Virus record (IMG/VR): IMGVR_UViG_3300027816_000098
Coordinates: 2,561 to 66,560 of that record
Origin: a virus
DNA: 64,000 bases
Strand: one strand, 5' to 3'
Part shown: positions 23,801 through 39,549 of the stretch, in pieces
Layout of the letters: the number at the start of each line of letters is the position of its first letter
Numbering within the stretch: the first letter of the stretch is position 1
Notes under the pieces: generated by a model
Database searches by the model: none
What the model was told of the DNA's origin: nothing
The model's input: only the letters and a program-made list of their open reading frames with translations
Translations under genes and position numbers: made by a program

Positions 23801-26800
23801 ATTTCTTGCTGCTGCATCTTTGTTGACAACAAATTCTCCTGGAGTTAATAGTGCTGCTTGAGTCCCACTACTATTTATATCTCCACCTTTATTTTTTGTT
23901 ACCAATATGTTTCTTAGTCCTGATAATGCTGCAGGTATGTTTGCTCCACCAGTGTAACTTGCTCCAACAATACTTCCATCTCTTCCTATAAAGTTTACTT
24001 TTCCTGATTTATTTCTATAAACACCAATACTTCCTTTTGGTAGGTTTTTGATAAATTGAGACTTTTGATCTTTTGTTATATCTCCTGCTAATTTTTTACC
24101 TTTATTTAAAACAACAAGACCTTTTGCTCTAAGGTTTGTTATTGTTCTAGGGCTTTCAATGTCAGTTGGTTTTGATATTCCTATCTTATTATAAATTTCT
24201 TTTGTATCTGCTCTCCACTGCATTGGTCTCTTTAATAAAGAATATGTTTCAGGATATAATTTTTTAATTGCCCTTTGATAGATTGGGCCTACATGCTTAT
24301 CAAATAGTAATTCATCGCCTCGACCAGTCTTTACCATTAATTCTAGTTTTCTTACCATTGCTGCTTGAACTCTATCAGAACCCGTTCCTCTACCAGTTTT
24401 ACCTAGCACTTGATCTAGTGGACCAAAGGTTTGACCTGCTGGAGTATTTCTTAAATATGACAACAGATCAGATGCTTTTACTCCACTTCCAACACTGTTT
24501 CTTAATGCTTGATTAATTGATCTAGGTAAAAATGCTGTAAATCCTTCTTGTTGTGTTGCAAATTTGCCAACCTTATTAAATATTTTTTCTTGGCCTCCAG
24601 TGAGTCCAGATGGTTTAACAAAATCTCCTCCAGATCCTAAGTGTGTAAGTTCAAGTGGTGGTCCAAACATTCTTGCTTGAGATGGCGATAACTTTCCTGG
24701 TCTAACTCCAATACCACTTCTTTCTACGGCTTCTTGTGCTAATATATCTAGATTTCTTTTATTTTCTATTACATCTCCGCCACCAAAGTATCCAGCAACT
24801 CCACCCATATTTAATCTTTCTAAGAACTTTGTACCAATGCTTCTAGTTGCATCTTTTGTTACAACAAATTCTCCTGGTGTCAACATTGCTGGAACTGTAT
24901 CTTGATTACCAGTTCCTGGAACTTGACCACCTGTAGCAAATCTTCTTGGGAAAGCACCTTTAATATTTCTTGATCTTGCTTGTGCTGTTTGTAATGCAGT
25001 TCCTGGTGCAGCAAATGTAAATTTAGATAAGGATGCTGCTTCGGCCATTCTGTTTATTAAATATGAATATGTATCGCCTAAGTTTCTAACTGCTGCCCTT
25101 GCACCCTCTGCGGCAGAAACTTGAGCACGGAAAGCATCGTTTGCAGACATGGTTGCTGAACCCAACTGTTTTGCTGCAATTGCGGCGTCTATCTCTTCAA
25201 GAGACATATACTTCATGGATTGAGTTACTGCTTGAATTCCGCCTACAACCCCACCCTTCATTAATCCTTTAGAAAATATTCCAAGAGATTGTAATAATTT
25301 AGCAAGAGTTCCACTTAGGTTCATTAATAAACCAAAAAACATTGTTCCAGCAGGTATAACTAAGCCAGTAATAATAGTTGCTAGTGCTATAAATTTCTTT
25401 GAAAAGTCAGGAAGATTATTAAATCCTTCTACTATCTTAGTTAAGAAATTAACAACAGGAATAGCAAGTTGAACAAATAATTGACCTATAGGAGCAATTG
25501 CTAATTTAAATTTTTCAATAGCCGCGGTTAATTGCACACCAAATGATTGCTCAATAACAGACAACTCTCTCTCAGCAGTTTGTCTTAACTGTTCAGAGGA
25601 GAATGCCATAGTGTCTATAACTTGACTTGCCTGTGATCCATCTCTAACTATATTCTCAAATAGTGCACCTAGACGAGCGTATTGGAACTTACCAAATACT
25701 TGCTCTAATGCTTGTTGTCTAGAGAATTCATCTAAAGTTTGAAGTGCTGTTGCGAAATCCATTACAGTGCCCATTAAATCTCCACGATTTCTTTGGACAA
25801 TTGCATCTAGATTAATGTTAAATCCAGCAAGCATTTCTTTTGCTTGTTTTGTTGGGTTAATTAAAGATCCAAGACCTGACTTTAGTGCGTTTGCACCCTG
25901 CTCTGCGGATACTCCACCTTCCTGCATTGCTGCAAGAAATACAGCCATATCTTTTACGTCTCCACCTAAACCTTTAATAACTGGTGCCACACGTGGAATT
26001 GCTGCTGCTAAATCTTGTAAACTTACTACAGTTTGGTTTTCAACCATGTTTAAGAAGTTAACTGTATCTGCTAACTCTTGTCCACTAAGTCTAAATGCTG
26101 ACTGCAAAGCAATTGTTGTATCAAGTGCTTGATTTTGATCCATTTGACCAAGTGTTGATAACCTAGTTGCTTGAGTTACTGCGTCTGTTAAATCTTTATT
26201 TCTACGACCTGCTGCTGCAGCCTGAGCAGCCAAGCCAACTGTATCTTTAACTGCAATTCCATATTTTGTATATTCTTTACCCAAAGCCATAACAGCATCC
26301 ATATTGCCTTGTAATTCTGCAGGTGTGGTAAAGATGTCTCCATAAACTTTTTTAAATGCTACTGCTTGTCTTTCTAGTTCCATGAATGTTTTGCCAGCAG
26401 TTGATCCAAATACTGTCAACGGTAGTGTAAAACCAACCATCAACTGACGACCAGCCCACTGAACATTCTTACCAAAGTTAATTAATTGTGTTGTTCCTTG
26501 CTTAAACATCGAAGTAAGAATTTGAGATCTTTGTGTAGCAATAGCCATCTCGGAACTAAATGCTGCTAGAGGTCTGATAGCAAGAGCCTCTTGCATGCCT
26601 CTTGATGCACCAGTTGTGGCTATAAATTGAGTTTGTAATGTTCTTGAACGCTCTGCGGCAAGACCCATTGTTTCAGCAAATAAAGCACTGTTTCTATTAA
26701 ATTTAGCATTAAAAAATTGACCTAGAGTTGCTTGACCTTTTCTTAGGGTAGCATCTAATGCACCAGCAGATGTTTTCATCTTTACGGTTTCAGCAGTAAA

Positions 26801-26989
26801 GAATCTGCTTGCATTAACTAAGTCTTGTAATTCAGTAGTATATTTAGCAGTGGCACTACTTTGAAATTTATTATTTTTATTTACCGCAATTGTAAATGCG
26901 TTTATTTGTTGTTGTAAAGCCTTTAATTGGGCAGCGGCATTACCCGTATTGATCTCAATATCAATAATACCCTTGGCTACATCAGCCAC
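20873..26989 (-). CDS. Tape measure protein
   Basis: 2038 aa, Ala/Gln-rich helical, TP901-like core, hydrophobic segments and three PAxLTPGEFVV-like motifs; follows the tail chaperones. Confidence 0.95.
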   Translation of the reverse strand: MADVAKGIIDIEINTGNAAAQLKALQQQINAFTIAVNKNNKFQSSATAKYTTELQDLVNASRFFTAETVKMKTSAGALDATLRKGQATLGQFFNAKFNRNSALFAETMGLAAERSRTLQTQFIATTGASRGMQEALAIRPLAAFSSEMAIATQRSQILTSMFKQGTTQLINFGKNVQWAGRQLMVGFTLPLTVFGSTAGKTFMELERQAVAFKKVYGDIFTTPAELQGNMDAVMALGKEYTKYGIAVKDTVGLAAQAAAAGRRNKDLTDAVTQATRLSTLGQMDQNQALDTTIALQSAFRLSGQELADTVNFLNMVENQTVVSLQDLAAAIPRVAPVIKGLGGDVKDMAVFLAAMQEGGVSAEQGANALKSGLGSLINPTKQAKEMLAGFNINLDAIVQRNRGDLMGTVMDFATALQTLDEFSRQQALEQVFGKFQYARLGALFENIVRDGSQASQVIDTMAFSSEQLRQTAERELSVIEQSFGVQLTAAIEKFKLAIAPIGQLFVQLAIPVVNFLTKIVEGFNNLPDFSKKFIALATIITGLVIPAGTMFFGLLMNLSGTLAKLLQSLGIFSKGLMKGGVVGGIQAVTQSMKYMSLEEIDAAIAAKQLGSATMSANDAFRAQVSAAEGARAAVRNLGDTYSYLINRMAEAASLSKFTFAAPGTALQTAQARSRNIKGAFPRRFATGGQVPGTGNQDTVPAMLTPGEFVVTKDATRSIGTKFLERLNMGGVAGYFGGGDVIENKRNLDILAQEAVERSGIGVRPGKLSPSQARMFGPPLELTHLGSGGDFVKPSGLTGGQEKIFNKVGKFATQQEGFTAFLPRSINQALRNSVGSGVKASDLLSYLRNTPAGQTFGPLDQVLGKTGRGTGSDRVQAAMVRKLELMVKTGRGDELLFDKHVGPIYQRAIKKLYPETYSLLKRPMQWRADTKEIYNKIGISKPTDIESPRTITNLRAKGLVVLNKGKKLAGDITKDQKSQFIKNLPKGSIGVYRNKSGKVNFIGRDGSIVGASYTGGANIPAALSGLRNILVTKNKGGDINSSGTQAALLTPGEFVVNKDAAARNRPFLDALNAGKVKNFQQGTRKERNQRYQNITGRTVGQARMAAIGSRVGGGIGGAAFTGFLAGPALQSSSNQAVSAIGKVVTGASIAASAFQVLGPVLRVLATRLPFLTNPVGLVITAFMATSGLLSIVVNKELKKVADAGAAMTRAMYGSTENIEAMAESFGRTTTRQRLAETRASRAGGGISAEAQQFSTQYIQSDAGKKLLADIEKVRAAGGDAALAIRNQVSKAVVAGAITPDEAEAIAKDIGLALNDQSLAIDAVGKISKLFGPNGELLENNILQIAAEISPKFNLSDIITLAQQQVEEGNFISKLFGIEENQVRENVANNINEILKGANENIAASMDVLTTQYEDGEISFTKYQEGIKQQTDLINKNTTKAIDSFAQYLGKTDAELKNLYDRNKFGNLRTQESKAVVKFFDDQRKAAEQSLVGVGQGFESSIVDAVFTGLADGDVLKATEYFNQLTTGNIDKDLVDKIVKALTDKGLIEAANAFRNYITPQVTSRAPDGVKPPVTFQEEDPPGSGGEKSKIQILEESIKQTKEYSAALSVLVKRGLSPEAAANLDAATAIELVKKKRLDLVKAVNQQAAAQRVLQNIVKGEDERQVDILEAQTDAIDANIEAVQDQIDAINKLNDADQRQLTVRNKALEDLSKKEENVNKSYNARIDALNRVKEANAQVAQQEKNRLDLASALTSGDIAAAAQAALTMTEDFAQGQIDNTQAELELQRQREIDALTTSVNGQLLTRQQIESQIDSINQRMYERDLQTWPLQDQIKNLESQREVIARQIEATQLRIRARQIEEEARVGRLVGYYKDIAKYINQAANRKYDPTAANAGGVIKKAFGGFLKYTSNEPAPGMAMGGKMKKYAVGNIVPGLGNTDRVPALLTPGEFVVRKSVAAENMDMLKALNGDVFPSIKGTGSSVELGSVAPTTSTINNTPVYTYNVNVNVPNTDASPEEIANVVVGKLRRMTDTNLRSNRL

Positions 26990-27363
26990 TAACTAATCAC
27001 CTCGTAATCTAACCCATGACCAATCCCAAAGCCTTTTTGCTTTGCAGCAACACCTTGCAGTGCCACTATGTCATTAGGGTTAGAGGTTTTTCCATTGCTG
27101 AAAACCCTTGCCTTTAGTGCTTCCCAAGCATCGTGAGACGACTTAGAATTTTTATCTAAATCTATTCCTTTTAGTGAAGCAAGGAACTTTTTGTTTTCAT
27201 ATTCTTCTTCTCTTTTAGTAGTTAGTATTTCTACTAATTCAGGTAGAGATAAAGAATTCTCCAGTTCCTCGTAATTCTTCCAAAGTCCTAGAAGAAATAC
27301 TTTAGATTCTATCTCGGCGAGATCTAGTTCTGACCAACTAGAGCCGCCGCTAGTGCGTTTGGG
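26989..27363 (-). CDS. Tail assembly chaperone, frameshifted C-terminal extension (gpGT-like)
   Basis: 125-codon open frame with no ATG (..SGGSSWSELDLAEIESKVFLLGLWKNYEELE...GFGIGHGLDYEVIS) in the -1 frame of 27324..27659; its stop overlaps the tape-measure start. Confidence 0.85.
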   Translation of the reverse strand, partial: PKRTSGGSSWSELDLAEIESKVFLLGLWKNYEELENSLSLPELVEILTTKREEEYENKKFLASLKGIDLDKNSKSSHDAWEALKARVFSNGKTSNPNDIVALQGVAAKQKGFGIGHGLDYEVIS

Positions 27364-27659
27364 TCGTTCAACTTAATTCCTGCAGCCACTTCAATTACTT
27401 TATAAACTGTTGGTAAATCAATAAGTTCTTCTAATTTTGCTTTATCTGCTATTTCAGGCTTGTATTGCTTCATAGCAATTGCAGCACAACTTAAAAGCAA
27501 ATCCATTGATTTAATATTGTCTTCAGCAATTGACGTGTCTGATATTTTTTGAAACTCTTTCATAAAATCTCTCAATAGAGAAATTTTTAAAGGTTTCATT
27601 GTTACTTTCGTACCGTCTTGTAATTCAACTTCTACAATTTCATAGACACTTGTTGCCAT
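27324..27659 (-). CDS. Tail assembly chaperone (gpG-like)
   Basis: Between major tail and tape measure; slippery heptamer near the 3' end. Confidence 0.88.
   Translation of the reverse strand: MATSVYEIVEVELQDGTKVTMKPLKISLLRDFMKEFQKISDTSIAEDNIKSMDLLLSCAAIAMKQYKPEIADKAKLEELIDLPTVYKVIEVAAGIKLNDPNALAAALVGQN
27357..27363 (-). other. -1 programmed ribosomal frameshift site C CCA AAC
   Basis: X XXY YYZ heptamer in frame, followed by a stem-loop CGGCG..TCTAGTT-GGTCAG-AACTAGA..CGCCG. Confidence 0.85.
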
Positions 27660-27694
27660 TTATCCTCCTTAAGGACATAGTAAAATTATAGCAC

Positions 27695-27723
27695 AAAACC
27701 CACCTCTCGACAAGAGAGATGGG
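27695..27723 (-). terminator. Intrinsic terminator after the major tail gene
   Basis: CCCATCTCTC-TTGTC-GAGAGGTGGG followed by TTTT. Confidence 0.85.
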
Positions 27724-27745
27724 CTAAGTGTCTATTTAATTGTTT

Positions 27746-28429
27746 TTAACCACGTACGCGATCTACGATTTTACCGTATGATCCATTTGATGCTGGAAGT
27801 AGACGGAATGATACTTCGAACATTGATGGTTCGTCACGTTTTGCAGATACTGTTACACTTTCAATTGAGAGTGCACGGTGTGCTACATATACGCGTTCTA
27901 CTGCTGATGCACCAGTTGCGTCTGGGTCTCCAGATCCTGGTCCGATTGCAACGATTGCTCGTTCAACTGGAACAGATCCTAGTTCTCCAGAGTTTAAGAC
28001 TAGTGTATCTTCAGTTGCACCATCGTATTTATCTGTACTTGGAGCAGCGATTGCTAACAATAAGTTTTCAAGTGTTGCTTCAGCAAATGCTGTTGCCATG
28101 TTAACTTGCATACCTTGTTTGTAAAGTTTTGCAACGTCTAGCAATTGATCAACTTGGACTTCACCGAAGTCTGGTTGGAATTGTAATTCCAAACCGTTCA
28201 TGGTGTAACCTACGTTGTTATAATCAGATGATGCTTCCATTGTGTCTGCGAACGGTGTTCCAGATACGAATGAAGGAATTCCTGATACGCTACCTGAACC
28301 AGTAAAGTTATAAACTGCTGCTGATCCAGAACCTTGTGAGTACTTCAAGGCACCTTTGCCACCTGTTCCTTTTGATACGAACAGACGAGCGGCACCTACG
28401 ATAATTTGGTTGCTGTTACCTAATGCCAT
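27746..28429 (-). CDS. Major tail (tube) protein
   Basis: IIVGAARLF, VGYTMNGLEL..PDFGEVQVDQLLD motifs; position, strong RBS and own terminator. Confidence 0.9.
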   Translation of the reverse strand: MALGNSNQIIVGAARLFVSKGTGGKGALKYSQGSGSAAVYNFTGSGSVSGIPSFVSGTPFADTMEASSDYNNVGYTMNGLELQFQPDFGEVQVDQLLDVAKLYKQGMQVNMATAFAEATLENLLLAIAAPSTDKYDGATEDTLVLNSGELGSVPVERAIVAIGPGSGDPDATGASAVERVYVAHRALSIESVTVSAKRDEPSMFEVSFRLLPASNGSYGKIVDRVRG

Positions 28430-28490
28430 ATTTTATTTCACCTTCCTTGTTTTTAGGAAAAGTGGGGCGATTTCCTCAATACTAATTATA
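28430..28490 (-). promoter_or_regulatory. Major tail promoter (-10 TATAAT at 28490..28485) and structured 5' UTR
   Basis: TATAAT, then hairpin AGGAAA-TCGCCCCACT-TTTCCT, then SD AAGGAAGG. Confidence 0.65.
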
Positions 28491-28500
28491 TACCTATTTA

Positions 28501-29085
28501 TTACTCATTATATTGCTTAGAATGATAGTCATATTTGATAATAAGATCTCTAGATGGTCTATATTCCATTAAATCAGATACATCTTGTTGACTTTCTGCA
28601 TACCCTGACTGAAACACATTGATACAGTGAAAACTATACTTAAATAAGTCTGGATAGGTAGATTCATCATAGTCTCTTAATGTTCCAGCAAATTGATTTA
28701 TATCTTGTGCTGCGGTATCTTCTCTATCTAAAATTGCTGTGATAAGACTTGTTAGGTTGATTGTTACTCCATATCTATCTGCACCGTTAGGAGCATCTCC
28801 ATATAAAGACCCACCATAAATTGTATATCTCATTTGCTCACTTTTTATAGGATAAAAATACTTATATGATCCTGTTCTTACTTTTGTAAACTTATCAAAT
28901 ATAATATATGGTAAATCATTCTCTAATATATCAGGAGGAATATTTCCTGCACCCGCTGGGAAAAATGGTATAAAGTCTGGACCACCTACGGTCTTAGGGT
29001 ATAGGTTATAAAAGGCTGGTGCCTGAGTTTTAAACTGTTCCCAAACATATTCATTAATAATGTTTTCTGGTCTATAAATCTTCAT
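28501..29085 (-). CDS. Tail terminator/completion protein (putative)
   Basis: Synteny: directly upstream of the major tail gene. Confidence 0.6.
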   Translation of the reverse strand: MKIYRPENIINEYVWEQFKTQAPAFYNLYPKTVGGPDFIPFFPAGAGNIPPDILENDLPYIIFDKFTKVRTGSYKYFYPIKSEQMRYTIYGGSLYGDAPNGADRYGVTINLTSLITAILDREDTAAQDINQFAGTLRDYDESTYPDLFKYSFHCINVFQSGYAESQQDVSDLMEYRPSRDLIIKYDYHSKQYNE

Positions 29086-29768
29086 CGTCTACCACCTGGT
29101 CCTTTTACGATCCAAGATAATGCTGCTTGTTTTCCTATTGATCTTGCATTTCTATTTTTAGCAGCACTTCTAAATTTATTACTATATTCTTTAGGGTTAG
29201 AAAAGTGTTTATAAAATCCTATTGAGTCCAAGTATACATTAGTAAAATATATCCCATAAAACTCATTGAATGCTCTAACAAAAGATCCTCTTGTTGCAGC
29301 ACCTCCTGGGTTTGCTATTACGATAGGACCACTTCTAAAAAACTCTTCTCCATCCACTTCAAAAAACAATGCTTTGGCATTAACTTCATTTATAACTACC
29401 TCTATTCCTTCTTCCATTACTCTTGCTTTATCAAAAAATTCTTGATCACTATTTGGCGGGGTTGTATCGGAATACAAAAACTCTGCAGATACTAATGCAT
29501 TATTACCTTTTAAAGCAGATGTTAGTTCAAATAGTCTTCCACCAGGGTTTCCAACTTGACCCCATTCATATACGTGGTGTAGCATTCCAGGATGTGATCT
29601 AGCAAGGCCGTCTAGATAATCGTAGAAAACATCTATTGATTCATCTGCTATATTCTTAGTTATTTTCTTTTGGTTTCTTTTTAACTCTGTTGTAAAGCCA
29701 TCTGTATATTGAACAACATTCTTTAAAACTTGTGAGACATTATTAACATTTATTTTTGCTGTAATCAT
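29082..29768 (-). CDS. Neck/tail completion protein (putative)
   Basis: LHHVYEWGQVG and FFDKARVMEEG motifs; synteny; likely ATG start at 29768 (track 29777). Confidence 0.6.
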   Translation of the reverse strand: MITAKINVNNVSQVLKNVVQYTDGFTTELKRNQKKITKNIADESIDVFYDYLDGLARSHPGMLHHVYEWGQVGNPGGRLFELTSALKGNNALVSAEFLYSDTTPPNSDQEFFDKARVMEEGIEVVINEVNAKALFFEVDGEEFFRSGPIVIANPGGAATRGSFVRAFNEFYGIYFTNVYLDSIGFYKHFSNPKEYSNKFRSAAKNRNARSIGKQAALSWIVKGPGGRR

Positions 29769-30238
29769 GATTCCCACTTTTGCACTTGAGACTTACTTAT
29801 GTACAGTCTAAAATGTCTTAGATTATGGTTATAGTCAAATGTAGGTACTATAGTTTTAACTTCATATTTAGTATTTACTACCCCTGCTGAATTAACTAAG
29901 TTTTGACCATTGATCCATACATAGGCTCCAGATGGATCTTTTATGTTTGTTACTGATATAGACGTAATAGGATGATAAATTCCACTACTATCTTGTCTTA
30001 GATCTTGTTTAGTTCTTAAAAATGCATTTGAGTCATAGATAAAGTCTGTACCTTTTGTTCTAAGTTCTCCATTAAAGCCTCTTGTAGACAATTCACTAAT
30101 AATTGAACAATCTATTGTTCTATCGTATACCCATGTTTTAGATATATTGCCGTAGTCTTGTTGTCTAGTTGTAGCATAGTATACATCTGCTGTCATTGGA
30201 AATAATAAGTCGTCAAGACTAGATGTCTCTAAAATCAT
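29765..30238 (-). CDS. Head-closure (stopper) protein (putative)
   Basis: DVYYA...DYGNISKTW pattern and synteny. Confidence 0.65.
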   Translation of the reverse strand: MILETSSLDDLLFPMTADVYYATTRQQDYGNISKTWVYDRTIDCSIISELSTRGFNGELRTKGTDFIYDSNAFLRTKQDLRQDSSGIYHPITSISVTNIKDPSGAYVWINGQNLVNSAGVVNTKYEVKTIVPTFDYNHNLRHFRLYISKSQVQKWES

Positions 30239-31125
30239 TACAACACCCCGATACGAAGCCTGTTTCTGTACTTCTCCAAAATTTTATCTACAAACATATT
30301 GCCAGTTCCAGTACTTGGATTTTTAGCAAACTTAATCTTAAAGTCTTCATTATCAAATGATTCAATATATCTGTTTATATATTTTAGATTATCGTTTTTA
30401 ATATCTTGTATTAATAATTCACATGCTTCTTGTATGTCTTGAGGAACAACTTTATATCCAAAGTCTCCGTCAATTGTATATTCGGCATTTTCAGCAAATT
30501 GAACATCTAGATATCTTTCCATCCATACCTGTCTATAATTGACTTTATTCTCTGGTGTTTCATCGTCTACGTTAGTTATTGATGTGCCATCTTTTGTAAT
30601 TGCATAAACAACGTCATTTGCACTAGCACTTAGGCTAGAATCATATTGTAAATCTTGATTTTCATATACTTTATAAATCTTGTATATTTTTTCATCTATT
30701 GGCAAATAGTCGGATCCATTTCCAACCACTGTTTTTTCTTTACGAAGGAATGGAAACCCTTGAGTTTGTGAGTCTATAATATATCTTGCTAGTCTTTCAT
30801 ATTCAATTTCTTTTCCATCAGTAATGCTCAATGCAGAGGCTACTGTGTCTAAATTGCAATATGGTCTTATGATTTCAATATTCGTTAAAATTACTGTATC
30901 ACCAATAGAGTTTTTAACTGATGCTGCTAGCGATCCAGTATAGTTTAAATATTTTGAGTCAAGGCTAAATGATACTGCTCCAGATATTGTGGTTGCTGAT
31001 GCTGAGAATGTTTCACCTGTATATAGGTCTTCATAGTCTAATGTATATGTTCCACTTGGAGAAATTGTAAAAGTGGCTGTTAGGCCAGTAACTTTTTTAT
31101 ATTGTCTTTCATTTAATATTTCCAT
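30238..31125 (-). CDS. Head-to-tail adaptor
   Basis: YCNLD...ARYIID and GYKVVPQDIQEACELL motifs; directly after the capsid gene. Confidence 0.75.
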   Translation of the reverse strand: MEILNERQYKKVTGLTATFTISPSGTYTLDYEDLYTGETFSASATTISGAVSFSLDSKYLNYTGSLAASVKNSIGDTVILTNIEIIRPYCNLDTVASALSITDGKEIEYERLARYIIDSQTQGFPFLRKEKTVVGNGSDYLPIDEKIYKIYKVYENQDLQYDSSLSASANDVVYAITKDGTSITNVDDETPENKVNYRQVWMERYLDVQFAENAEYTIDGDFGYKVVPQDIQEACELLIQDIKNDNLKYINRYIESFDNEDFKIKFAKNPSTGTGNMFVDKILEKYRNRLRIGVL

Positions 31126-31162
31126 AATAAATAAAATTCCTCCTTACTAATTATATCATTGT

Positions 31163-31201
31163 AAAAAGATTGAAGGGAGGATATTTTACTATCCCCCCTT
31201 C
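31163..31201 (-). terminator. Intrinsic terminator after the major capsid gene
   Basis: GAAGGGGGGATA-GTAAAA-TATCCTCCCTTC stem, then AATCTTTTT. Confidence 0.8.
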
Positions 31202-31218
31202 TGTGAACTAAAAGTTAA

Positions 31219-32208
31219 TTAGTTCTTTGAGAATGCAACTGCATCTGTTTCTTCGATTTGAACACCAAAACGTAAGAAAGTTGTATATTCTACAGTGTCT
31301 TTCTTAGGTTGGAATTCGCGATGTACAGTAATGTCTCTTTGGAATCCCCAAATACGGTTTTCTGGGAATGTCAATGAGATATAGTCTGCTGGCATCAAAG
31401 GAACTTCAACTAGAGGAATTCCTAGTACACGGTATGTAACAGGTGCACCTAATGTTTGTGGTGCTACTCCGTCAATAACGCGTTCTACGATTCTTTCTGA
31501 TGGCAAGTTACCGCTTGAGCCGAGACCATTGATGATATCTGCTACTGTTTCGCTAGAAGCGTAGAATTTCATTGCACCGCGTGATGCACGATACTTACGT
31601 GGCATTGCAAGAACTAATGCTTGCAAATCTTCCACGGTTGTACCAAATGTACCACCAGCATCGTTACCAGTTTGTTCTTTTACATAGAAACCTTCCAAAA
31701 TGTTAAGGAATGAGTTTGTACCAGAACCTGTACCGTTGATAGCAAGATCTTCAAGATCGTTTGCAAATGCACGAGTCATTGTGCGAACTAAGTGATCTTC
31801 TAATCCTGCACCTTCGATGTTGTCTTCAAGTGCTTCTGTTGATACTTCCCAGTCAAGACGGATTTTCTTTGTAGAAAGTTCCACCTTTGTGAAAGTAACA
31901 CCAGCGTTGGTGTATGTTGCGTCTGCTTGTGCAGCAGCACGGATAACACGTTCTCCAACGTTTAACTTCTCTAGTTCTGCTGAGTTGGCACGCATTGTTA
32001 CACGGCGACCATCACGAGCAAGAACTTGTTGTTCGAAAATATATTCGATAAATTGAGCAGATTGTTCTGGATTTAAGATACCGCCACCATCGGCTGGTGA
32101 TGCTGTACCTGCAGGTCCTAGGTTTGCTGAAGGAGTTGATACTCCACCAATTCCACCTGAAACGATTGATCCAGTTGCTGCTGATTTTTCTAAAATTTCT
32201 TCTGACAT
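31219..32208 (-). CDS. Major capsid protein (HK97 fold)
   Basis: GGILNPEQS, EALEDNIEG, FANDLEDLAING motifs; strong RBS; biased codon use. Confidence 0.95.
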   Translation of the reverse strand: MSEEILEKSAATGSIVSGGIGGVSTPSANLGPAGTASPADGGGILNPEQSAQFIEYIFEQQVLARDGRRVTMRANSAELEKLNVGERVIRAAAQADATYTNAGVTFTKVELSTKKIRLDWEVSTEALEDNIEGAGLEDHLVRTMTRAFANDLEDLAINGTGSGTNSFLNILEGFYVKEQTGNDAGGTFGTTVEDLQALVLAMPRKYRASRGAMKFYASSETVADIINGLGSSGNLPSERIVERVIDGVAPQTLGAPVTYRVLGIPLVEVPLMPADYISLTFPENRIWGFQRDITVHREFQPKKDTVEYTTFLRFGVQIEETDAVAFSKN

Positions 32209-32232
32209 AATTTTTTCACCTCCCAGTGAATG

Positions 32233-32826
32233 TTAACGATAGAGGTCAGCGGAATTGAGGAAACGCCCGCCCCACATCGACCTTTTTTGTATTTTGTTTT
32301 CCTGCACGACCCCGCCGAGGTCGCCAGACTTGCGGATAGCGGTATCATCTTCTAGTGAGTCAACACGCTTTCCAAACTCTTCTGCGTTGTTTTTCATTGT
32401 TGTAACTTCCTCGTTTACTTTTGCAACGCTTTTTTGCAATTCGGCAATTTGATCATTAATTGATTTTACAGTTGCCACTAAATCTCCAACTGCTGCAGTA
32501 ACGGACTTGCTAACTTCTTCAACAGAAGTTTTGACTGTTTCAACAGCCTTTGCCAAGTCAGCATCTTTGCTCTCTTCAGCAGGAGTGGTGGCATCTTCAA
32601 CTACAGTATCAGATTTTTCAACTGCTTCTGCTGCTGCTTCTGCTGGTGCTTCTGCTGCTGCTTCTGCTGGTGCTTCTGCTGCTGCTTCTGCTGGTGCTTC
32701 TGCTGCTGCTTCTGCTGGTGCTTCTGCTGCTACTTCTGCTTCTGCTGTTTCAGACTCAACGATTTCATCTACAACGACTACTTCGTCTTCAACTGCCTTA
32801 GTTACTTCTTTTTCTGTATTTGCCAT
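32233..32826 (-). CDS. Scaffolding protein from an in-frame internal start (putative)
   Basis: AAAGGAGGGGAATAAT-ATG inside the protease gene, in frame, giving MANTEKEVTKAVE... Confidence 0.65.
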   Translation of the reverse strand: MANTEKEVTKAVEDEVVVVDEIVESETAEAEVAAEAPAEAAAEAPAEAAAEAPAEAAAEAPAEAAAEAVEKSDTVVEDATTPAEESKDADLAKAVETVKTSVEEVSKSVTAAVGDLVATVKSINDQIAELQKSVAKVNEEVTTMKNNAEEFGKRVDSLEDDTAIRKSGDLGGVVQENKIQKRSMWGGRFLNSADLYR

Positions 32827-33945
32827 ATTATTCCCCTCCTTTACGGAATTATCAATTGACATCCCATCAAGTGATTTTGATGAATTCATTCTTAATGTTT
32901 TCATCTTGTGTCCGACAATTGTATCCGTAGGTTTTCCATCTCTGTAAACCCTAATAGCAACTGCTGGATCTTCTGGCGTTCCTGTAATAGTAAAAGAACT
33001 ATTTGGAACCTTTATTTTTCCATTGCGAACGACTCTAGTAACTTTTCCTCTTGCAGTACCACCGCTTGAGTTCCAAGATACCATGTCGCCAACTCTAACA
33101 TTACTTGCTTTACCCATTTCTTCTTTTTCTTCTTTATCATGCCACATTGCCATATGATCTGGGCAATTTTTTGGATCTTCACAATCATCCATTGAATGTG
33201 GATTTTTATTTGGTGTCATTTCGTTTGTGATTGCACCATGTTCTTTTAATAAGTCTTTAATTCTTTGTGTTTTTTCTGTATCTGTTGTTTCAACAAATCC
33301 AATTAGTAATTCACCTGTACGTGGATCTTCTTCTTTAGAAAGTCTAACTAATCCATTATCTTTTGACCAATATACATTTTCAACAGTCATCTTAGATAAA
33401 AATCCATCAACAACATTAGTTCCATCTTCTTTCTTTTGAATAGATAAAATGTTTGCAAATTGATTTGCTGGATTATCTACTAAAGATAATTCACTCAAGT
33501 CATAATCTTTAATAACTCTAATTGCTTTATCCATCTGGGGGTCATATTGATCTTCACTATCTTTAATACTACCGCCAATAGAAAAACCAGAAAGAGTACC
33601 GTCAAGAACTTTTTCCCAAGTGTCTTGAGCACCTTTAGAAATGTAAGCATCTACATACACCCCATTATAAAACTTATCTTCTTCTTTGTTATAAAATTTA
33701 TCTGCTTTGAATGACATTACTCTACCGACTGCGATAGGCATGTGCATTTCTCTTAGATTTCCACGGAATCTTTCAAATGCCTTAATACTAACATCTGTTG
33801 GGACAATGTCTGACTGCTTGTCAACATTGTCTAGGGTTGCGAACCCTGAAACCATACGTTTTTCTTTATCGACTTTAGCGATTGGCATGGATAACTTTAT
33901 AGAGTTATCTTCAGAGTGCCAAAATGCTTTATGCAAATTAGTCAT
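32233..33945 (-). CDS. Prohead maturation protease fused to scaffold
   Basis: VSGFATLDNVD, REMH, GFSIGG and ELSLVDNPAN HK97-type protease motifs; acidic/coiled-coil C-terminus. Confidence 0.9.
   Translation of the reverse strand: MTNLHKAFWHSEDNSIKLSMPIAKVDKEKRMVSGFATLDNVDKQSDIVPTDVSIKAFERFRGNLREMHMPIAVGRVMSFKADKFYNKEEDKFYNGVYVDAYISKGAQDTWEKVLDGTLSGFSIGGSIKDSEDQYDPQMDKAIRVIKDYDLSELSLVDNPANQFANILSIQKKEDGTNVVDGFLSKMTVENVYWSKDNGLVRLSKEEDPRTGELLIGFVETTDTEKTQRIKDLLKEHGAITNEMTPNKNPHSMDDCEDPKNCPDHMAMWHDKEEKEEMGKASNVRVGDMVSWNSSGGTARGKVTRVVRNGKIKVPNSSFTITGTPEDPAVAIRVYRDGKPTDTIVGHKMKTLRMNSSKSLDGMSIDNSVKEGNNMANTEKEVTKAVEDEVVVVDEIVESETAEAEVAAEAPAEAAAEAPAEAAAEAPAEAAAEAPAEAAAEAVEKSDTVVEDATTPAEESKDADLAKAVETVKTSVEEVSKSVTAAVGDLVATVKSINDQIAELQKSVAKVNEEVTTMKNNAEEFGKRVDSLEDDTAIRKSGDLGGVVQENKIQKRSMWGGRFLNSADLYR
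32623..32739. repeat. 24-bp tandem repeat x4 plus a partial copy, encoding (PAEAAAEA)n
   Basis: tgcttctgctgctgcttctgctgg repeated perfectly four times. Confidence 0.95.
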
Positions 33946-33989
33946 ACTACTTCCATTATATTAGTATTTATAAGGGTTTTTAAAAACTG

Positions 33990-35549
33990 TTATAATACGG
34001 TTCTACCCTCGCCACCTGGACCTCGTCCAGTGGTGGTTGAAGGAGAATCACTAGCATTGTCAGTTCTTTGTTGATCCCTGCTTCTGTTTCCAGTTGCTTG
34101 TGCTGTTTGTTCTGCTCTTTGTTGAGCACCCAAAACAATTGGGTCTTGTCCCCCTAGTCTTGAAGGGTAACCAAGTCTTTCTCTTACTTCATTAGGAACA
34201 ACTACCTGCATTCTTAGATATCTTTCATCTATTTGGCTTTGAGTAGTTTCATCTGTTAAGGTAAGTTCATTTAGTTTAAATTGTAAAATATCTGTTTTTT
34301 CTTTAACAATTTTATTGATTACTTTTTCTAGGTTTCTTTGGGCTGGTCTAGCAACTTGTTCTTTGAATGTTCTATCAGAAGCGAGAGCAGAGGCAATAGA
34401 AACTCCAGCACCCCCTCCTACTTTAGAGAAAGGTACCTGGTGTGCCATCAAGATATCGTCTCTATTAGACTTACGGTATCTTTCAAACGATCCTTCTTGA
34501 ATTCCAGCCTCAATAGGATCCATCTTAAATTCTACTTTGCTATCTGTTGTATCTCCTGGAAGTGGGATATACAGAGTTCTGTGACTTTGACCACGAAGTC
34601 CTGATTGCAAGAATCTAAATAACTTATCTTCTGCGTCTGAACTTAATTTAGCACCTTTTAGGGTTACTATATATCTAGGAACTGCTTTGTTTTCAAAGTA
34701 GTCAATATTATATCTACCTGCTAAATTATCTCCTACCATTGATACTGATGATGCAATTGTATCTGGCACTCCGTAGTATGAAGTCTTTGGAGAGTATTTC
34801 TTGATATGGATAAGTTCATTTGGTCTTGGATCAGTAGTTACTGGATTTGATTCTTTTCCTTGGAAGTTTCTAAAGAATACAACTCTTTGGTTAACTATTT
34901 GAATATATCCATCACGAATACGGCGTACACGAATTGTAGTTGCTGGAATATGGCCAATGTAGCCTATTTCTCCATTTACTTTTCTACCTACTTCAATATA
35001 TCCATTTCCTGTTGATTCAACATCTGTATAAACTTTTTCTAATATATGGCTAAATGTATCTTCATCGTTTAGATCTTCTAACCACTGTGTCATCTGTGCT
35101 TTTAGTCTTTGAAGTTTTCTTTGTGCTCTCATCAGTTGTTCTTCTGATTCTGCTTCTTCTAATCTAGCAGTTGTAGCATCTGTATTTTCAAAGTGGTATC
35201 CTAAGCCAACTATGTTTGATACCTTGGCATTAATTGCAGCATGGTTTGCAAATGAGTTTTCGTAAAACCAAGCAAGTTCATCTAAATTATATGGAGGAAC
35301 AACAACATCATATAGTCCGTATGCTGTAACAATATCCATTTCTGGGAATAATTGTTTTGATTTTGTGTTATCTTGTCCTGTAAAAACTTTGTTTATTGAG
35401 CGTGATGCTCTGCGTTTAAAATTTGAATCTAGCCCAGAATATGATTTTGCTACTTCAGCATCAATCATGAAGTCGTCTGACTTTTGTTGCTTTTCCATTC
35501 TGTCTAGGTTATCTATTCTAGCAACGTATTCGTATTCTTCATTCTCCAT
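33990..35549 (-). CDS. Portal protein
   Basis: TGNGYIEV, ELIHIK, YYGVPD, YFENKAVP and NEVRERLG motifs. Confidence 0.93.
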   Translation of the reverse strand: MENEEYEYVARIDNLDRMEKQQKSDDFMIDAEVAKSYSGLDSNFKRRASRSINKVFTGQDNTKSKQLFPEMDIVTAYGLYDVVVPPYNLDELAWFYENSFANHAAINAKVSNIVGLGYHFENTDATTARLEEAESEEQLMRAQRKLQRLKAQMTQWLEDLNDEDTFSHILEKVYTDVESTGNGYIEVGRKVNGEIGYIGHIPATTIRVRRIRDGYIQIVNQRVVFFRNFQGKESNPVTTDPRPNELIHIKKYSPKTSYYGVPDTIASSVSMVGDNLAGRYNIDYFENKAVPRYIVTLKGAKLSSDAEDKLFRFLQSGLRGQSHRTLYIPLPGDTTDSKVEFKMDPIEAGIQEGSFERYRKSNRDDILMAHQVPFSKVGGGAGVSIASALASDRTFKEQVARPAQRNLEKVINKIVKEKTDILQFKLNELTLTDETTQSQIDERYLRMQVVVPNEVRERLGYPSRLGGQDPIVLGAQQRAEQTAQATGNRSRDQQRTDNASDSPSTTTGRGPGGEGRTVL

Positions 35550-35904
35550 TTGACTTTAAACCTCTTTCTGCATCCATCCATGCACCGATATCTGTTTCGC
35601 TTGCAATGTATCCTTCTTTCATTCTTTGAACTTGTTCTGAGTACTCAGCATCGGATACTCTTCTTATTCCTGGCATAAAAATTACTTTTCCTGCTGGTGC
35701 TCCGTAGTATTCTGCTGCTTGTTTTACCTTAGCCATCTTTTCAAGGTCGTATGGATGGCCAGGTATATTCATAACATTTCCTCTACCGTCTCCAAATGCT
35801 TTGCCATTCTTATCCATTTGCCACACATATATGCCATATTTTTGTTGTTTATTTAAGACTGTTAACTTACTTTTGCCATTTTTTGGATCACCGTAATTTT
35901 TCAT
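35539..35904 (-). CDS. Hypothetical protein
   Basis: ORF upstream of the portal; TGGTACAAT ends 7 nt before the ATG at 35904 (track start 35910). Confidence 0.7.
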   Translation of the reverse strand: MKNYGDPKNGKSKLTVLNKQQKYGIYVWQMDKNGKAFGDGRGNVMNIPGHPYDLEKMAKVKQAAEYYGAPAGKVIFMPGIRRVSDAEYSEQVQRMKEGYIASETDIGAWMDAERGLKSNGE

Positions 35905-35922
35905 ATACACAATTGTACCATA

Positions 35923-38900: not shown

Positions 38901-39549
38901 TTGATGCTGATACAATTCCTAAAAGTGCTGCATCTTGTATTTGTTCTGGAACCTTTCCAGTTGTTTCGTAGTGAAATAATTCAGACCACTGCCCTACGGA
39001 AAGTCCATTGAAAACAATATTATACTCATCACCAAAGTCTGGGCCAGCATTTAAATATGTAACTCTTACAAATGGATATATGTCTACATTTCCTTCTGGA
39101 ACTTGCATTGTATGACTTACTTTTTCCCACTTCTCATTTTCTGGTCCACTGAGAGTGCTAAAGTATAAATTATTGTTATATCTAAATCCTATATCAACAG
39201 TCAAAACAAATCCAGAGGTATCGTAGAAAAATGTGTTTATAGATATTGTCTTTTTATCTGGATCTAGATTTAACTCTGTATTTATTGGAGATGCTAATGC
39301 TGATGCGGATAGTGATACAGACGCTGAGTTAATTGTCATGTAGTACTTTGGATTTCCAGCCATAGGCTCACCGTATACTGCAGATGGAGAAACTACCTCT
39401 TCTAGGTTATAAAGAGACCAATTTGCTAGATCTTTTTGAGATGTACTTAATTTAGAAACGTAAGATGCTTCATCATCTAAAGACCATAGTGCTATTGGGT
39501 GTTCTGCATAGATTCTAGCAGCGTATAGGTTTGAAACTGATTTAGACAT
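35923..39549 (-). CDS. Large virion structural protein with ConA/LamG-like domains
   Basis: PIALWSLDD N-terminus; TAEFW...LLING...IDCFAVY LamG-like pattern; 1208 aa. Confidence 0.7.
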   Translation of the reverse strand: MSKSVSNLYAARIYAEHPIALWSLDDEASYVSKLSTSQKDLANWSLYNLEEVVSPSAVYGEPMAGNPKYYMTINSASVSLSASALASPINTELNLDPDKKTISINTFFYDTSGFVLTVDIGFRYNNNLYFSTLSGPENEKWEKVSHTMQVPEGNVDIYPFVRVTYLNAGPDFGDEYNIVFNGLSVGQWSELFHYETTGKVPEQIQDAALLGIVSASNYTSLSASAITVVAADSYGIGNSNNGYYLVEKNRMLSSTLDFPITFGSNNITSLKHPLYGRTPSLAFEGQGFLNEFGRYRTLTAEFWLRAYTTAKNPIKIFGPLTSEDGIYIESDFIIIKIGLNKKSYFIGKWYRPMLIDFVYNIANASLLINGDLVIQMDLDQNSISFPEITKDYVGFFSDEEIPNLEIDCFAVYPYAVPEQVAKRRFIYAQGVEAANNIATNFNGDSFQLDFPYAKYTSTLNYPDMNDWNSGFFNNLSSTSRFLSFPNYQLPDIIFSTSASGSFEGVELNTFLTDNYNIQDDEYPFIKLRPDSSYNNIVSSIYFSNLNFLNSPIRSIFGVFESPASLSASPEVLMTFSNSFNSNTFEVTVSNSGLEYYFNSTKIGQLSLSASSTFIAGIDLNTINTQYAATIENFFFNPQNLSLRLGGTQNSVYSGKIHRITFNNALYTQKDLSEYITASGFFTQTLDSLYLKYYIGNYTFYPQRLSDSLLLDIGASGYWEDSIPLSYFGRYVEDRNKNSYYDLDLLQYNIETPSSPILKKDQYYLDGGSSQSSNFKFWFDDGFYDKEVDDVDLEFDGGGPSASTTYLTDPQLDLAFKNYSKENYFIKSYVTLQNFADVGKIPYSQYEFIQRINGDRVLDFDSETIQDFNTTKYEVMDRTVIFPPKELVDFKDYYITVHIELQTNGLINNPIQIKKMSLSSLAYDESSFYSISSPDGYKLYPFSRYDKFYVYKNKNPFVVYKDSTSYMYTTADSGISVLPYDSSATRGITVPINQQQASQYLLGGVQFWGFYNKDYTIEPTQAIAQIKTYLKTYTLYLSPESNSLRGKVEVYDENNINVSNDLIFYQNGKLVDDIYITPLTWNSILIVFDQGEDLANYVGQFEVYEGLMVNNMAFYRKSNEAVGREFILNDWVDISTETTWQTWEDAQNWSSIEGQVEELRINVDGTNIYESTFGVASVVLDDTSQLNVSSDSVVVITGTIWEEYSQKPV

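Follow-up and report, generated by a model that had tools for sequence, protein, structure and literature searches.

In an actinobacterial siphovirus lineage that takes in the Stanwilliamsviridae of Streptomyces, the Trina-like phages of Rhodococcus and a very abundant uncultured freshwater family, head and tail production are probably coupled by a handshake between two messages, in which the 5' end of the tail-tube mRNA pairs with the leader of the capsid mRNA. This handshake appears to have survived at least three occasions on which the paired letters were completely rewritten. It is very likely that a functional RNA duplex exists, and comparison of related loci indicates that this duplex is a selected feature joining the two most abundant virion messages. 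The entire case is computational and starts from a window of 64,000 nucleotides, the whole stretch of viral DNA analysed here, whose relevant features are given in Table 1.

Table 1. Positions of genes, promoter, pairing segments and hairpins of the capsid and tail-tube region in the window.
Feature	Position	Strand	Basis or remark
-10 box TATAAT, tail-tube promoter	28485..28490	-	TATAAT or TATACT at this place in 80/80 related loci
5'-terminal pairing segment, tail-tube mRNA	28462..28480	-	letters, target scan and +1 alignment
Arm H1 ATTGAGGAAAT of leader	28480..28470	-	
Arm H2 CGCCCCAC of leader	28469..28462	-	
Shine-Dalgarno (SD) region, tail-tube gene (AAGGAAGGTGA)	28438..28448	-	window letters
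Major tail (tube) protein gene, 227 aa	27746..28429	-	homology; ATG at 28429
Terminator-like hairpin and T run 3' of tail-tube gene, then TGCTATAAT	27695..27723	-	
Capsid-mRNA target: GTGGGGCG (pairs H2), GGCG bulge, TTTCCTCAAT (pairs H1)	32254..32275	-	
Local hairpin P3 (GGGCGG / CTG-ACCT), H1 target in its loop	32243..32272	-	
Conserved hairpin P1, within scaffold ORF	32306..32324	-	
Prohead protease-scaffold fusion ORF, 570 aa	32233..33945	-	phrog_9427, Peptidase_S78
Major capsid protein gene (HK97 fold family)	31219..32208	-	ATG at 32208
Capsid SD GGGAGGTGA	32224..32216	-	
Strong terminator-like hairpin (12 pairs) and T run directly 3' of capsid gene	31162..31201	-	
TGATATAAT after capsid terminator-like hairpin	31158..31150	-	

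The tail-tube leader at 28480..28462 (minus strand) is the reverse complement of a stretch at 32275..32254 on the same strand. The leader stretch, which starts 5-7 nt 3' of the TATAAT box, reads ATTGAGGAAA-T-CGCCCCAC, and the capsid-side stretch reads GTGGGGCG-GGCG-TTTCCTCAAT and lies inside the last codons (..MWGGRFLN..) of the protease-scaffold ORF 33945..32233, covering codons W-G-G-R-F-L-N, 46-67 nt 5' of the capsid ATG. The complementarity amounts to 8 + 10 bp, and counting one U.G pair brings it to 8 + 11 bp. A first-pass annotation of this DNA had pointed out both stretches, and its letters, coordinates and reverse complementarity proved exact; the capsid-side hairpin CGACCTC/GGGGTCG that it described is also present, at 32324..32306 (minus strand). 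Within the 64 kb these are the only two sites of the 8-mer CGCCCCAC, one per strand, with 0.14 expected. A scan of the 28-nt 5' segment of the leader against the whole window on both strands (10,643 scan positions) returned the scaffold-end target as the best site at -33.1 kcal/mol, with the next best non-self site at -24.5 and a background of -8.1 kcal/mol (sd 3.2). We rejected the idea that the leader motif GAGGAAAY is a repeated leader, since it is not enriched in the window (7 sites vs 4.5 expected) and its other five minus-strand sites lie within coding sequence and have no promoter box. The tail-tube protein itself aligns at 39% identity (E 2e-50) with the protein annotated as major tail protein in Streptomyces phage LilMartin and matches phrog_2175, and its gene neighbours are a chaperone-like gene and a tape-measure gene.

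The related set comprised 80 uncultured freshwater loci holding both the capsid and the tail-tube genes. A -10 box, the 5'-terminal leader motif and a complementary target were found in all 80; the box reads TATAAT in 56 and TATACT in 24, lies 5-8 nt 5' of the leader motif in every one and is preceded by TGn in many. Outside the pairing motif the leader is not conserved in this family. The duplexes average 15.4 bp (range 12-21) and -24.3 kcal/mol, and share a core contact of 8-9 bp between GAGGAAAY of the leader and RGUUUCCUC of the capsid side. Among 33 distinct related loci of 5-13 kb, the target is the leader's best site in 31; the other two, L050 and L054, score better at another site. Positions 0-7 from the predicted +1 are paired in 49-52 of 52 distinct pairs and position -2 in 17 of 52; the helix thus begins, that is, pairing ends on the 5' side, at the predicted +1 of the tail message. 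Together with the placement of the -10 box, this lends indirect support to the earlier suggestion that the leader sits at the 5' end of a transcript.

We consider it very unlikely that no RNA pairing takes place at all, and that the two stretches are either DNA sites, inverted relative to each other, of a single DNA-binding protein from phage or host, or an accidental match between a promoter-proximal element and a conserved peptide, each kept independently. Both freshwater motifs are, as such a reading would have it, so conserved that their complementarity is largely inherited, and the capsid-side motif encodes the conserved peptide WGGRFL. The advantage of cognate pairs is also modest: a swap test favoured them by about 2 kcal/mol (permutation p = 0.007, kinship ignored), with 65-68% of the comparisons negative and 18-23% positive (kinship likewise ignored), and in a distant freshwater clade cognate pairs are no better than non-cognate ones (ranks 9-17 of 19). 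The optimal duplexes nevertheless hold 45 G.U pairs, and in 47 of 60 pairs the sense-strand duplex is better than the antisense one (worse in 12); a distance between the two arms that varies by 0-5 nt among relatives is ill-suited to a protein site as well. Rare synonymous codons are, moreover, retained in the target. Among 106 distinct sequences its Leu codon is CTC in 99 and CTA in 7, CTC making up 10.3% of the Leu codons in the capsid and tail genes of the family; its Gly codon is GGC in 86 of the 99 sequences with Gly there, for a family usage of 14.7%; and the codon at the Phe position is TTC in 106/106. At the second Gly codon the third base, bulged in the duplex, varies freely (A 48, T 39, G 17, C 2). 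This codon choice indicates that RNA-level selection acts on the coding side of the target. Double changes were seen in three duplex columns, each of them probably a single evolutionary event; a compensatory change from G-C to U-A accompanies CTA on the capsid side and UUAGG in the leader, and L050 and L083 have one base pair fewer, on both sides. In L083 the G-rich target arm is largely gone while the C-rich patch of the leader is kept, so this patch may serve another role.

The strongest support comes from phages in culture: complementarity between leader and target is also shown by six Streptomyces and four Rhodococcus phages, with altered or unrelated letters that make three versions in all. 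The changes in the Streptomyces phages include the compensatory replacements A-U to G-C and C-G to U-A or U.G. In Rhodococcus phages Trina, Francesca, Dorin and NiceHouse the letters are fully replaced and the complementarity is kept; pairing begins 6-8 nt after a TGnTATAAT-like box, and the target is intergenic or lies across the stop codon, outside the WGG..F codons. Three unrelated sequence versions and a target that has left the peptide-coding codons are hard to reconcile with a protein-binding site or with independent conservation of the two elements. The check that the first-pass annotation had suggested, namely a search of relatives for complementarity with compensatory changes, therefore came out in its favour, and even full replacement of the letters was seen. 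In the letter-replaced cultured phages only 0-3 of 94-129 other locus windows were as good as the target, and 0/30 shuffled controls were as good in four of five phages (Dorin lay outside the shuffle set). Three of 128 other windows are as good as the target in NiceHouse and one of 112 ties with it in LilMartin, and Jay2Jay has a better-scoring site elsewhere (-33.1 vs -27.9 at the target). The relationship was not found in three more distant phages: Rhodococcus phage Peregrin, which has a different tail module (60/96 other windows as good), Vibrio phage PG28 (146/153) and Rhodobacter phage RcZahn (142/152), in which the choice of tail-tube gene is a guess. The myovirus Clostridium phage Clo-PEP-1, outside the tested set, lacks a leader in front of its sheath gene. 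Neither megablast of the 6.3-kb region nor blastn of the conserved 151-nt capsid-upstream element gave a match in the phage collection. Genome contig matches were rejected as a guide to the host, as the MAGs carry labels of unrelated taxa; going by the cultured relatives only, we infer a presumably actinobacterial host.

A hairpin with a T run comparable to that of the tail gene was found in 58 of 64 distinct relatives, and one comparable to that of the capsid gene, under a strict rule, in 61 of 109; all six cultured relatives with intergenic space after the capsid gene have a hairpin there. Because predicted terminators thus lie 3' of both genes, the two sites are most likely on separate mRNAs and would pair in trans, and, given a functional RNA duplex, we regard pairing in trans rather than in cis as likely. 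A scan for terminator-like sites between 28480 and the tail ATG at 28429 found none, the first one following the tail gene, and an independent small RNA, whether derived from the 5' UTR or standing alone, was rejected on this ground. Metatranscriptome contigs from freshwater (three studies) extend from the capsid ORF across the target (X1, 31831-32383; X5, 32207-32412; X7, 32026-32272 and 32243-32450), and one contig of X1 covers the tail gene up to 28457. The interval 28606-31017 is uncovered in four metatranscriptome runs, and the contigs are uninformative as to low expression or separate transcripts. Contig ends at 28457 (X1), 31194 (X6) and 31199 (X1) are weak hints at most, starts and strands not being readable from contigs.

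The arms might instead pair within one read-through late transcript, looping out the 3.8 kb from the capsid to the tail-terminator gene, much as processing stalks flank rRNAs, and act either as a site for RNase III or as a structure that defines the ends of mRNAs. Both arms do lie on one strand, 3.8 kb apart, terminators can leak, and the duplex of the window has 19 bp with a 3-nt bulge. We nonetheless judge this improbable: a GC-rich terminator-like hairpin of 12 bp with a T run stands between the arms and similar ones are conserved, a promoter-like box lies at a fixed 5-8 nt from one arm in 80/80 loci, and pairing does not run past the predicted +1. With RNase III requiring about two helical turns, duplexes that average 15.4 bp, and range from 12 to 21, are short for a substrate.

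The local folds on the capsid side are well conserved. In the P3 helix 98.9% of cells are paired across the family, with many changes from G-C to G.U and 6 A-U double changes, and of the seven pairs of P1 three have changed on both sides, U-A having become C-G in 18 sequences, for example. What the hairpin loop displays in the freshwater family is the core of the capsid-side target, not the leader, and a strand-invasion arm adjoins it. The first-pass annotation had described the converse, a leader hairpin AGGAAA/TTTCCT with CGCCCCAC in its loop (a 'kissing loop'), and had also proposed that TTTCCT masks the tail SD; both are confined to the close clade of the window (WIN, L004, L005 and L008), and its 'competing AGGAAAAC' on the capsid side is clade-specific too.

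The same trans duplex could regulate the capsid message, with the tail 5' end acting as a small-RNA-like seed that opens P3, frees its 3' arm with ACCU and so alters translation of the capsid gene or of the scaffold end; this is essentially the switch of the first-pass annotation. The target stays 45-90 nt 5' of the capsid start in all versions, even outside the scaffold codons, and a place near the capsid RBS that survives sequence turnover could mean that the capsid side is regulated. The position of the target core in a hairpin loop next to an invasion arm, in the family of the window, would suit such a role. In fold models, blocking the target lowered the predicted accessibility of the capsid SD in 16 of 68 cases and raised it in one, but the effect is tiny, with a mean falling from 0.53 to 0.50, and accessibility modelling does not favour a translation switch at the capsid gene. 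The ribosome-binding footprint does not reach about 45 nt 5' of an ATG, which is where the target ends, and regulation of the capsid message gives no account of why pairing should start precisely where the tail message is predicted to begin. We therefore consider it unlikely.

On the tail side, weak predicted folds pair the SD with the 5' 26 nt at a mean probability of 0.56 (above 0.5 in 43/68 leaders), and inspection of the letters by eye found no counterpart of this pairing in the Rhodococcus leaders. Stabilisers of the STAB-SD type are ribosome-binding elements with a strong SD-like stretch near the mRNA 5' end. An element of this type was rejected here: only GAGG is SD-like, the conserved AAAC and the C-rich arm would go unexplained, and NiceHouse lacks an SD-like stretch at its leader's 5' end.

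Our favoured guess has the tail-tube mRNA shielded or activated at its 5' end by the capsid mRNA. The tail-tube gene would have its own extended -10 promoter and give a short message that stops at its own terminator. The first ~20 nt of this message, from about +1, would pair in trans 45-80 nt 5' of the capsid start codon, with a target carried by a protease-scaffold-capsid message that ends at the terminator 3' of the capsid gene. In the family of the window, the core contact of 8-9 bp would form with the capsid-side core shown in the loop of the local hairpin, and the C-rich leader arm would invade the G-rich 5' arm of that hairpin; here pairing may in addition release the tail SD from the C-rich arm. 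The abundant capsid message would then protect the 5' end of its partner against 5'-end-dependent decay, and tail-tube synthesis would thereby follow head-gene expression. Even given a functional duplex, this shielding output is a tentative suggestion that falls somewhat short of an even chance, and it draws on the 5'-terminal position and on a precedent in another phylum. For the explanation as a whole, a trans duplex from the tail-message 5' end with an output of the kind proposed, we put the chances at about even.

The balance of head and tail proteins in phages is usually ascribed to promoter and RBS strength, translational coupling and frameshifting, and a direct RNA-level link between the head and tail assembly lines would be added to these if our explanation is true. 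It would give a new account of the way in which phages set the output of their two most abundant proteins relative to each other, and would be the first mRNA-mRNA riboregulation between phage virion structural genes. Trans-acting mRNA-mRNA regulation rests on a handful of bacterial cases, and it would be extended to phage morphogenesis. The relationship is present in non-pathogenic systems in culture, among them Streptomyces phages such as LilMartin, Jay2Jay and Coruscant and the Rhodococcus erythropolis phages Trina and NiceHouse, and it is therefore bench-testable. For phage engineering and recoding it is relevant that synonymous positions in the last codons of a scaffold gene can be subject to selection at the RNA level.

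A literature search found no description of pairing between capsid and tail-tube mRNAs, and the Rfam 15 covariance models gave no match in 26000..36000 on both strands at E values up to 1. Long-range processing stalks flank rRNAs, and RNase III sites occur in phage T7 early RNA. Like these, the present case has complementary arms kilobases apart on one strand that bracket a block of genes; unlike them, it has a conserved terminator between the arms, a promoter at one arm and short duplexes. Riboregulators, both small RNAs and those derived from 5' UTRs, use a 5'-terminal seed, loop-first pairing and strand invasion. The phage leader similarly has a conserved seed of 8-9 nt at its extreme 5' end, and the target core lies in a hairpin loop from which pairing extends into the stem; in contrast to a small RNA, the 'regulator' would be the full tail-tube message, given that no terminator-like site separates the seed from the ATG. 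A close parallel is found in Listeria monocytogenes, where base-pairing to the hly mRNA guards the prsA2 mRNA, at its 5' end, against RNase J1 (Ignatov et al. 2020, PMC8722363). In that system, separately transcribed coding messages of functionally linked products pair in trans, as would be the case in the phages if the predicted separateness of the two transcripts holds, one partner engages through its 5' end, and protection from a 5'-end-dependent RNase provides the model for the output we propose. In the phages we found extended specific complementarity that includes the 5' end of one partner, and pairing maintained by compensatory change. The partner site in Listeria is the 3' UTR of a bacterial virulence mRNA, whereas the phage site lies upstream of the capsid RBS, mostly in the preceding ORF, and both partners in this interaction, as predicted from sequence, are virion genes.

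The 5'-terminal pairing segment of the predicted tail-tube mRNA (the leader) and a stretch upstream of the capsid gene (the target) are reverse complements, with 8 bp + 10 bp (11 bp counting one U.G pair). The letters that the first-pass annotation had noted for the leader, the -10 box and the target were all correct on re-reading of the window sequence. The 8-mer CGCCCCAC has just two sites in the window, in the leader and in the target, with 0.14 expected. When the 28-nt 5' segment of the leader was used in an energy scan of the whole window (10,643 windows, both strands), the target at the scaffold end gave -33.1 kcal/mol, compared with -24.5 for the second-best non-self site and a background of -8.1 (sd 3.2). 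The leader/target match is real and well above chance for the window.

Features of the window that bear on the leader/target pairing
Feature	Position	Strand	Basis or context
Portal gene	33990-35549	-	annotation
Prohead protease, scaffold-like C-terminal part, 570 aa	32233-33945	-	annotation
Hairpin P1, CGACCTC/GGGGTCG	32324..32306	-	RNAalifold and pair counts
Target GTGGGGCG-GGCG-TTTCCTCAAT	32275..32254	-	last codons of 570-aa ORF 33945..32233; 46-67 nt 5' of ATG at 32208
Hairpin P3, loop CGUUUCCUCAA, 5' arm is the G-rich target part	32272..32243	-	RNAalifold and pair counts
Major capsid protein, HK97-type	31219-32208	-	annotation
Hairpin, 12 bp, GC-rich, with T run	31201..31162	-	directly 3' of capsid stop; then TGATATAAT box
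-10 box TATAAT	28490..28485	-	upstream of tail-tube leader
Leader pairing segment ATTGAGGAAA-T-CGCCCCAC	28480..28462	-	sequence read-out
ATG of 227-aa tail gene	28429	-	sequence read-out
Like hairpin with T run	27723..27695	-	3' of tail gene; then TGCTATAAT box

The window comes from a 66.5-kb IMG/VR record of an uncultured virus. The 227-aa protein shares 39% identity (E 2e-50) with the annotated major tail protein of Streptomyces phage LilMartin; a chaperone-like gene and then a 2038-aa tape-measure gene come after it, and the window and LilMartin have the same gene order, gene by gene. The closest cultured capsids are those of Streptomyces phages (40-43% identity) and Rhodococcus phages (35-36%). 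Since genome matches to MAGs carry conflicting taxon labels, we can only infer an actinobacterial host. Upstream of the portal gene lies a 1208-aa ORF (35923-39549, minus strand) without a Pfam match. The middle of the protease-scaffold ORF (32550-32800) is GC-rich, repetitive and strongly skewed, with GCTTCTGCTGGTGC-type repeats on the plus strand and an AT skew as low as -0.96; This stretch, a likely low-complexity linker, is also where RNA contigs break.

From viral contigs, two scans based on the capsid, each taking the best 80 of >590 IMG/VR matches, gave 151 loci with capsid identities of 53-97%. Among the 152 sequences including the window, 80 covered the starts of the capsid and tail genes with sufficient flank and served as the conservation set. 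The first-pass annotation had proposed a switch between the capsid and tail messages, and the complementarity on which it was built was found in 80/80 of these freshwater loci holding both genes. All 80 have a -10 box (TATAAT in 56, TATACT in 24), often with TGn in front, 5-8 nt (mostly 6-7) 5' of the leader motif (U)GAGGAAAC; this motif and the capsid-side motif UGGGGNGGNCGUUUCCUC are likewise found in 80/80. A C-rich patch follows 0-5 nt 3' of the leader motif, and outside these two elements the leader is without conservation. At their optimum, the duplexes of the 60 distinct pairs comprise 12-21 bp (mean 15.4) with energies of -17.2 to -31.4 kcal/mol (mean -24.3), and the scaffold end was the top same-strand target of the leader across the locus in 31 of the 33 distinct loci of the first scan set, the exceptions being L050 and L054.

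The capsid-side motif encodes W-G-G-R-F-L in codons that are rare for these phages. Among 106 distinct sequences Leu is encoded by CTC in 99 and by CTA in 7, although CTC accounts for just 10.3% of the Leu codons that the family uses in its capsid and tail genes; the Phe codon is TTC in 106/106; and GGC serves as the first Gly codon in 86 of the 99 sequences having Gly there, compared with a family usage of 14.7%. In the second Gly codon, the third base falls in the bulge between the arms and is unconstrained. Compensatory differences are also seen: leader UUAGG is found in the clade whose capsid side reads CUA, with locus L009 as a mismatched intermediate; L050 and L083 are each short of one U/A pair on both sides; where capsid-side AUG precedes the Trp codon the leader has CCCCAC, and capsid-side CUA occurs with leaders ending in CCCAUA(G). 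As a point against selection of the pairing, the G-rich target arm is mostly lost in L083, yet the leader retains its C-rich patch. Pairing holds at helix positions 0-7 in 49-52 of the 52 distinct core pairs, at position -1 in 39/52 and at position -2 in 17/52; the helix therefore ends at the predicted transcript start. Swapping partners between loci cost about 2 kcal/mol on average (65-68% worse, 18-23% better), with a permutation p of 0.007, and a smaller swap test gave p = 0.0035, both tests ignoring phylogeny; as a further point against, the smaller test gave the cognate target no advantage over non-cognate ones within the distant freshwater clade. The sense-strand duplex was better than the antisense one in 47/60 pairs and worse in 12/60, and 45 G.U pairs occur in the optimal duplexes of this set, which argues for pairing as RNA rather than DNA.

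Cultured relatives carry other versions of the pairing. In the Streptomyces phages LilMartin, Jay2Jay, Coruscant, Muntaha, Annadreamy and Faust (6/6 tested), leader GAGGAAGU(G) faces capsid-side C(A/G)CUUCCUC, which differs from the freshwater family by two double compensatory changes and one U.G variant. The Rhodococcus phages Trina, Francesca and Dorin use unrelated letters: leader AGGUAGGAUUUA..CGC pairs with capsid-side GCGAAUAA(G)UCCUACC, a target lying across the protease stop codon. Rhodococcus phage NiceHouse, again with unrelated letters, has leader (UU)ACCGUAAGA and two more short arms against intergenic UCUUACGGU(GA). In all cultured versions the leader arm begins 6-8 nt 3' of a TGnTATAAT-like box, with the target 50-90 nt 5' of the capsid start. 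A uniform test compared leader positions -90 to -11 against capsid positions -120 to -1 and against every other 120-nt window of the locus; equally good other windows numbered 0/110 in both Muntaha and Annadreamy, 0/112 in Faust, 0/94 in both Coruscant and Dorin, 0/129 in Francesca, 0/128 in Trina, 1/112 in LilMartin and 3/128 in NiceHouse. Shuffled leaders attained the observed value in 0/30 cases in each of the six uniform-test phages so checked. For Jay2Jay, a cruder scan found an unrelated site that outscores the target. No specific pairing was found in Rhodococcus phage Peregrin, which has a different tail module (60/96 other windows equally good), in Vibrio phage PG28 (146/153) or in Rhodobacter phage RcZahn, whose tail gene was guessed (142/152). 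Without selection on the pairing, three unrelated sequence solutions with one geometry are very hard to account for, and to judge from these sequences it is the cultured relatives that decide for a selected pairing.

The capsid-upstream region was aligned over 151 nt for 106 distinct sequences (alignment A1) and folded by RNAalifold with pair counts. Conservation at the nucleotide level is high, and two hairpins, P1 and P3, are supported, with 98.8% of cells paired for both together (slid controls 37-51%) and 32 double-change cells compared with 7.2 in shuffles, a value attained by 0/500 shuffles. P1 is the capsid-side hairpin already proposed in the first-pass annotation and is backed by this alignment, whereas the leader hairpin and the "competing" elements proposed with it are present only in the window's closest clade. 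We suggest that the linear 5'-terminal seed of the leader would meet the P3 loop and that the C-rich leader arm would then invade the P3 stem. A further, variable hairpin with many compensatory differences by eye is confined to the distant freshwater clade (e.g. L051, L058, L060); it lies between P1 and the target, inside the scaffold ORF (A1 columns ~58-90), and its stems differ widely by locus, e.g. GAGTTTTCA/TGAAGACTC and GAATTGGA/TCCAATTC. In the window's clade an A-rich linker takes the place of this hairpin (32300-32278). About 20 nt 5' of P1 (..TTCCGCAAGTCTGG..; 32325-32345, minus strand; A1 columns 18-36) are almost invariant in the 106 sequences, third codon positions included, which neither the P1/P3 hairpins nor the pairing with the tail leader explains.

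Terminator-like hairpins follow both genes, and therefore the tail-tube gene is predicted to give a short, monocistronic message, with the capsid gene predicted to close its own unit. By a strict rule, relatives have such a hairpin after the capsid gene in 61/109 distinct cases and after the tail gene in 58/64; among cultured phages it follows the capsid gene in 6/6 having intergenic space there and the tail gene in 6/7. These predicted separate units favor pairing in trans, on two messages, although a read-through transcript carrying both arms is possible. RNA contigs from freshwater metatranscriptomes of three studies span from the capsid ORF across the target, and one identical 699-nt RNA contig spans the tail gene as far as 28457; such contigs are uninformative on starts, strands and levels.

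In the window (31150-31201 and 27685-27723, minus strand), the capsid and tail-tube genes each run into a GC-rich terminator-like hairpin and directly into the TGnTATAAT box of the next gene. The late region resembles a series of short units, every one having a promoter and a terminator of its own, and the Streptomyces and Rhodococcus relatives share this arrangement. In the gene after the capsid terminator (31125-31150, minus strand), AAGGAGGAAT begins ~4 nt past the TGATATAAT box and 15 nt 5' of the ATG, an unusually wide gap between SD and ATG; the 5' end predicted for this gene (GGAGGAAU..) is like the tail leader motif. Contigs of three metatranscriptome runs (X5, X6, X7) share a joint skipping 197 bases within the capsid gene (31611-31809); its shorter sides are just 20-27 letters at 90% likeness, and it may stem from relatives or assembly. 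Trina (locus L167) has a second target-like 9-mer, ATCCTACCA, ~75-90 nt 5' of the tail ATG at 11666 and just upstream of the tail promoter box, which, if on a read-through RNA, could pair with leader arm GGTAGGAT across the promoter.

An effect of the pairing on the capsid SD is hardly seen in the fold models: with the target blocked, predicted capsid SD accessibility went from 0.53 to 0.50 (down in 16/68, up in 1/68). Blocking the leader's first 20 nt raised predicted tail SD accessibility in 43/68 and lowered it in 7/68, and in weak predicted folds the tail SD pairs with the first 26 nt of the leader at a mean probability of 0.56; no counterpart of this fold was seen by eye in the Rhodococcus leaders. 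The sole feature common to all versions is that pairing starts at the extreme 5' end of the predicted tail message, and because of this we favor shielding as the output of the duplex, in which the capsid message would protect the tail-message 5' end from 5'-end-dependent decay. A precedent for such shielding is prsA2 mRNA paired to hly mRNA (PMC8722363). Regulation in the opposite direction, with the pairing acting on capsid or scaffold translation, may also apply, given that the target position near the capsid RBS is fixed. Co-processing of the paired RNAs by RNase III is possible, but the duplexes are short. The entire case is computational, leading from predicted transcript ends through a predicted interaction to an inferred effect.

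Rfam gave no match for the region. A term search of the BE1 genome announcement (PMC5764925) gave neither "promoter" nor "motif", and a preprint passage on T2 concerns a host sRNA instead. A full-text literature search returned, in its excerpts, nothing on phage capsid/tail message pairing. Regulation between mRNAs in trans is known from a few bacterial cases; a predicted contact joining the mRNAs of the two principal virion proteins of a phage, and persisting through full sequence turnover, would be a new form of it.
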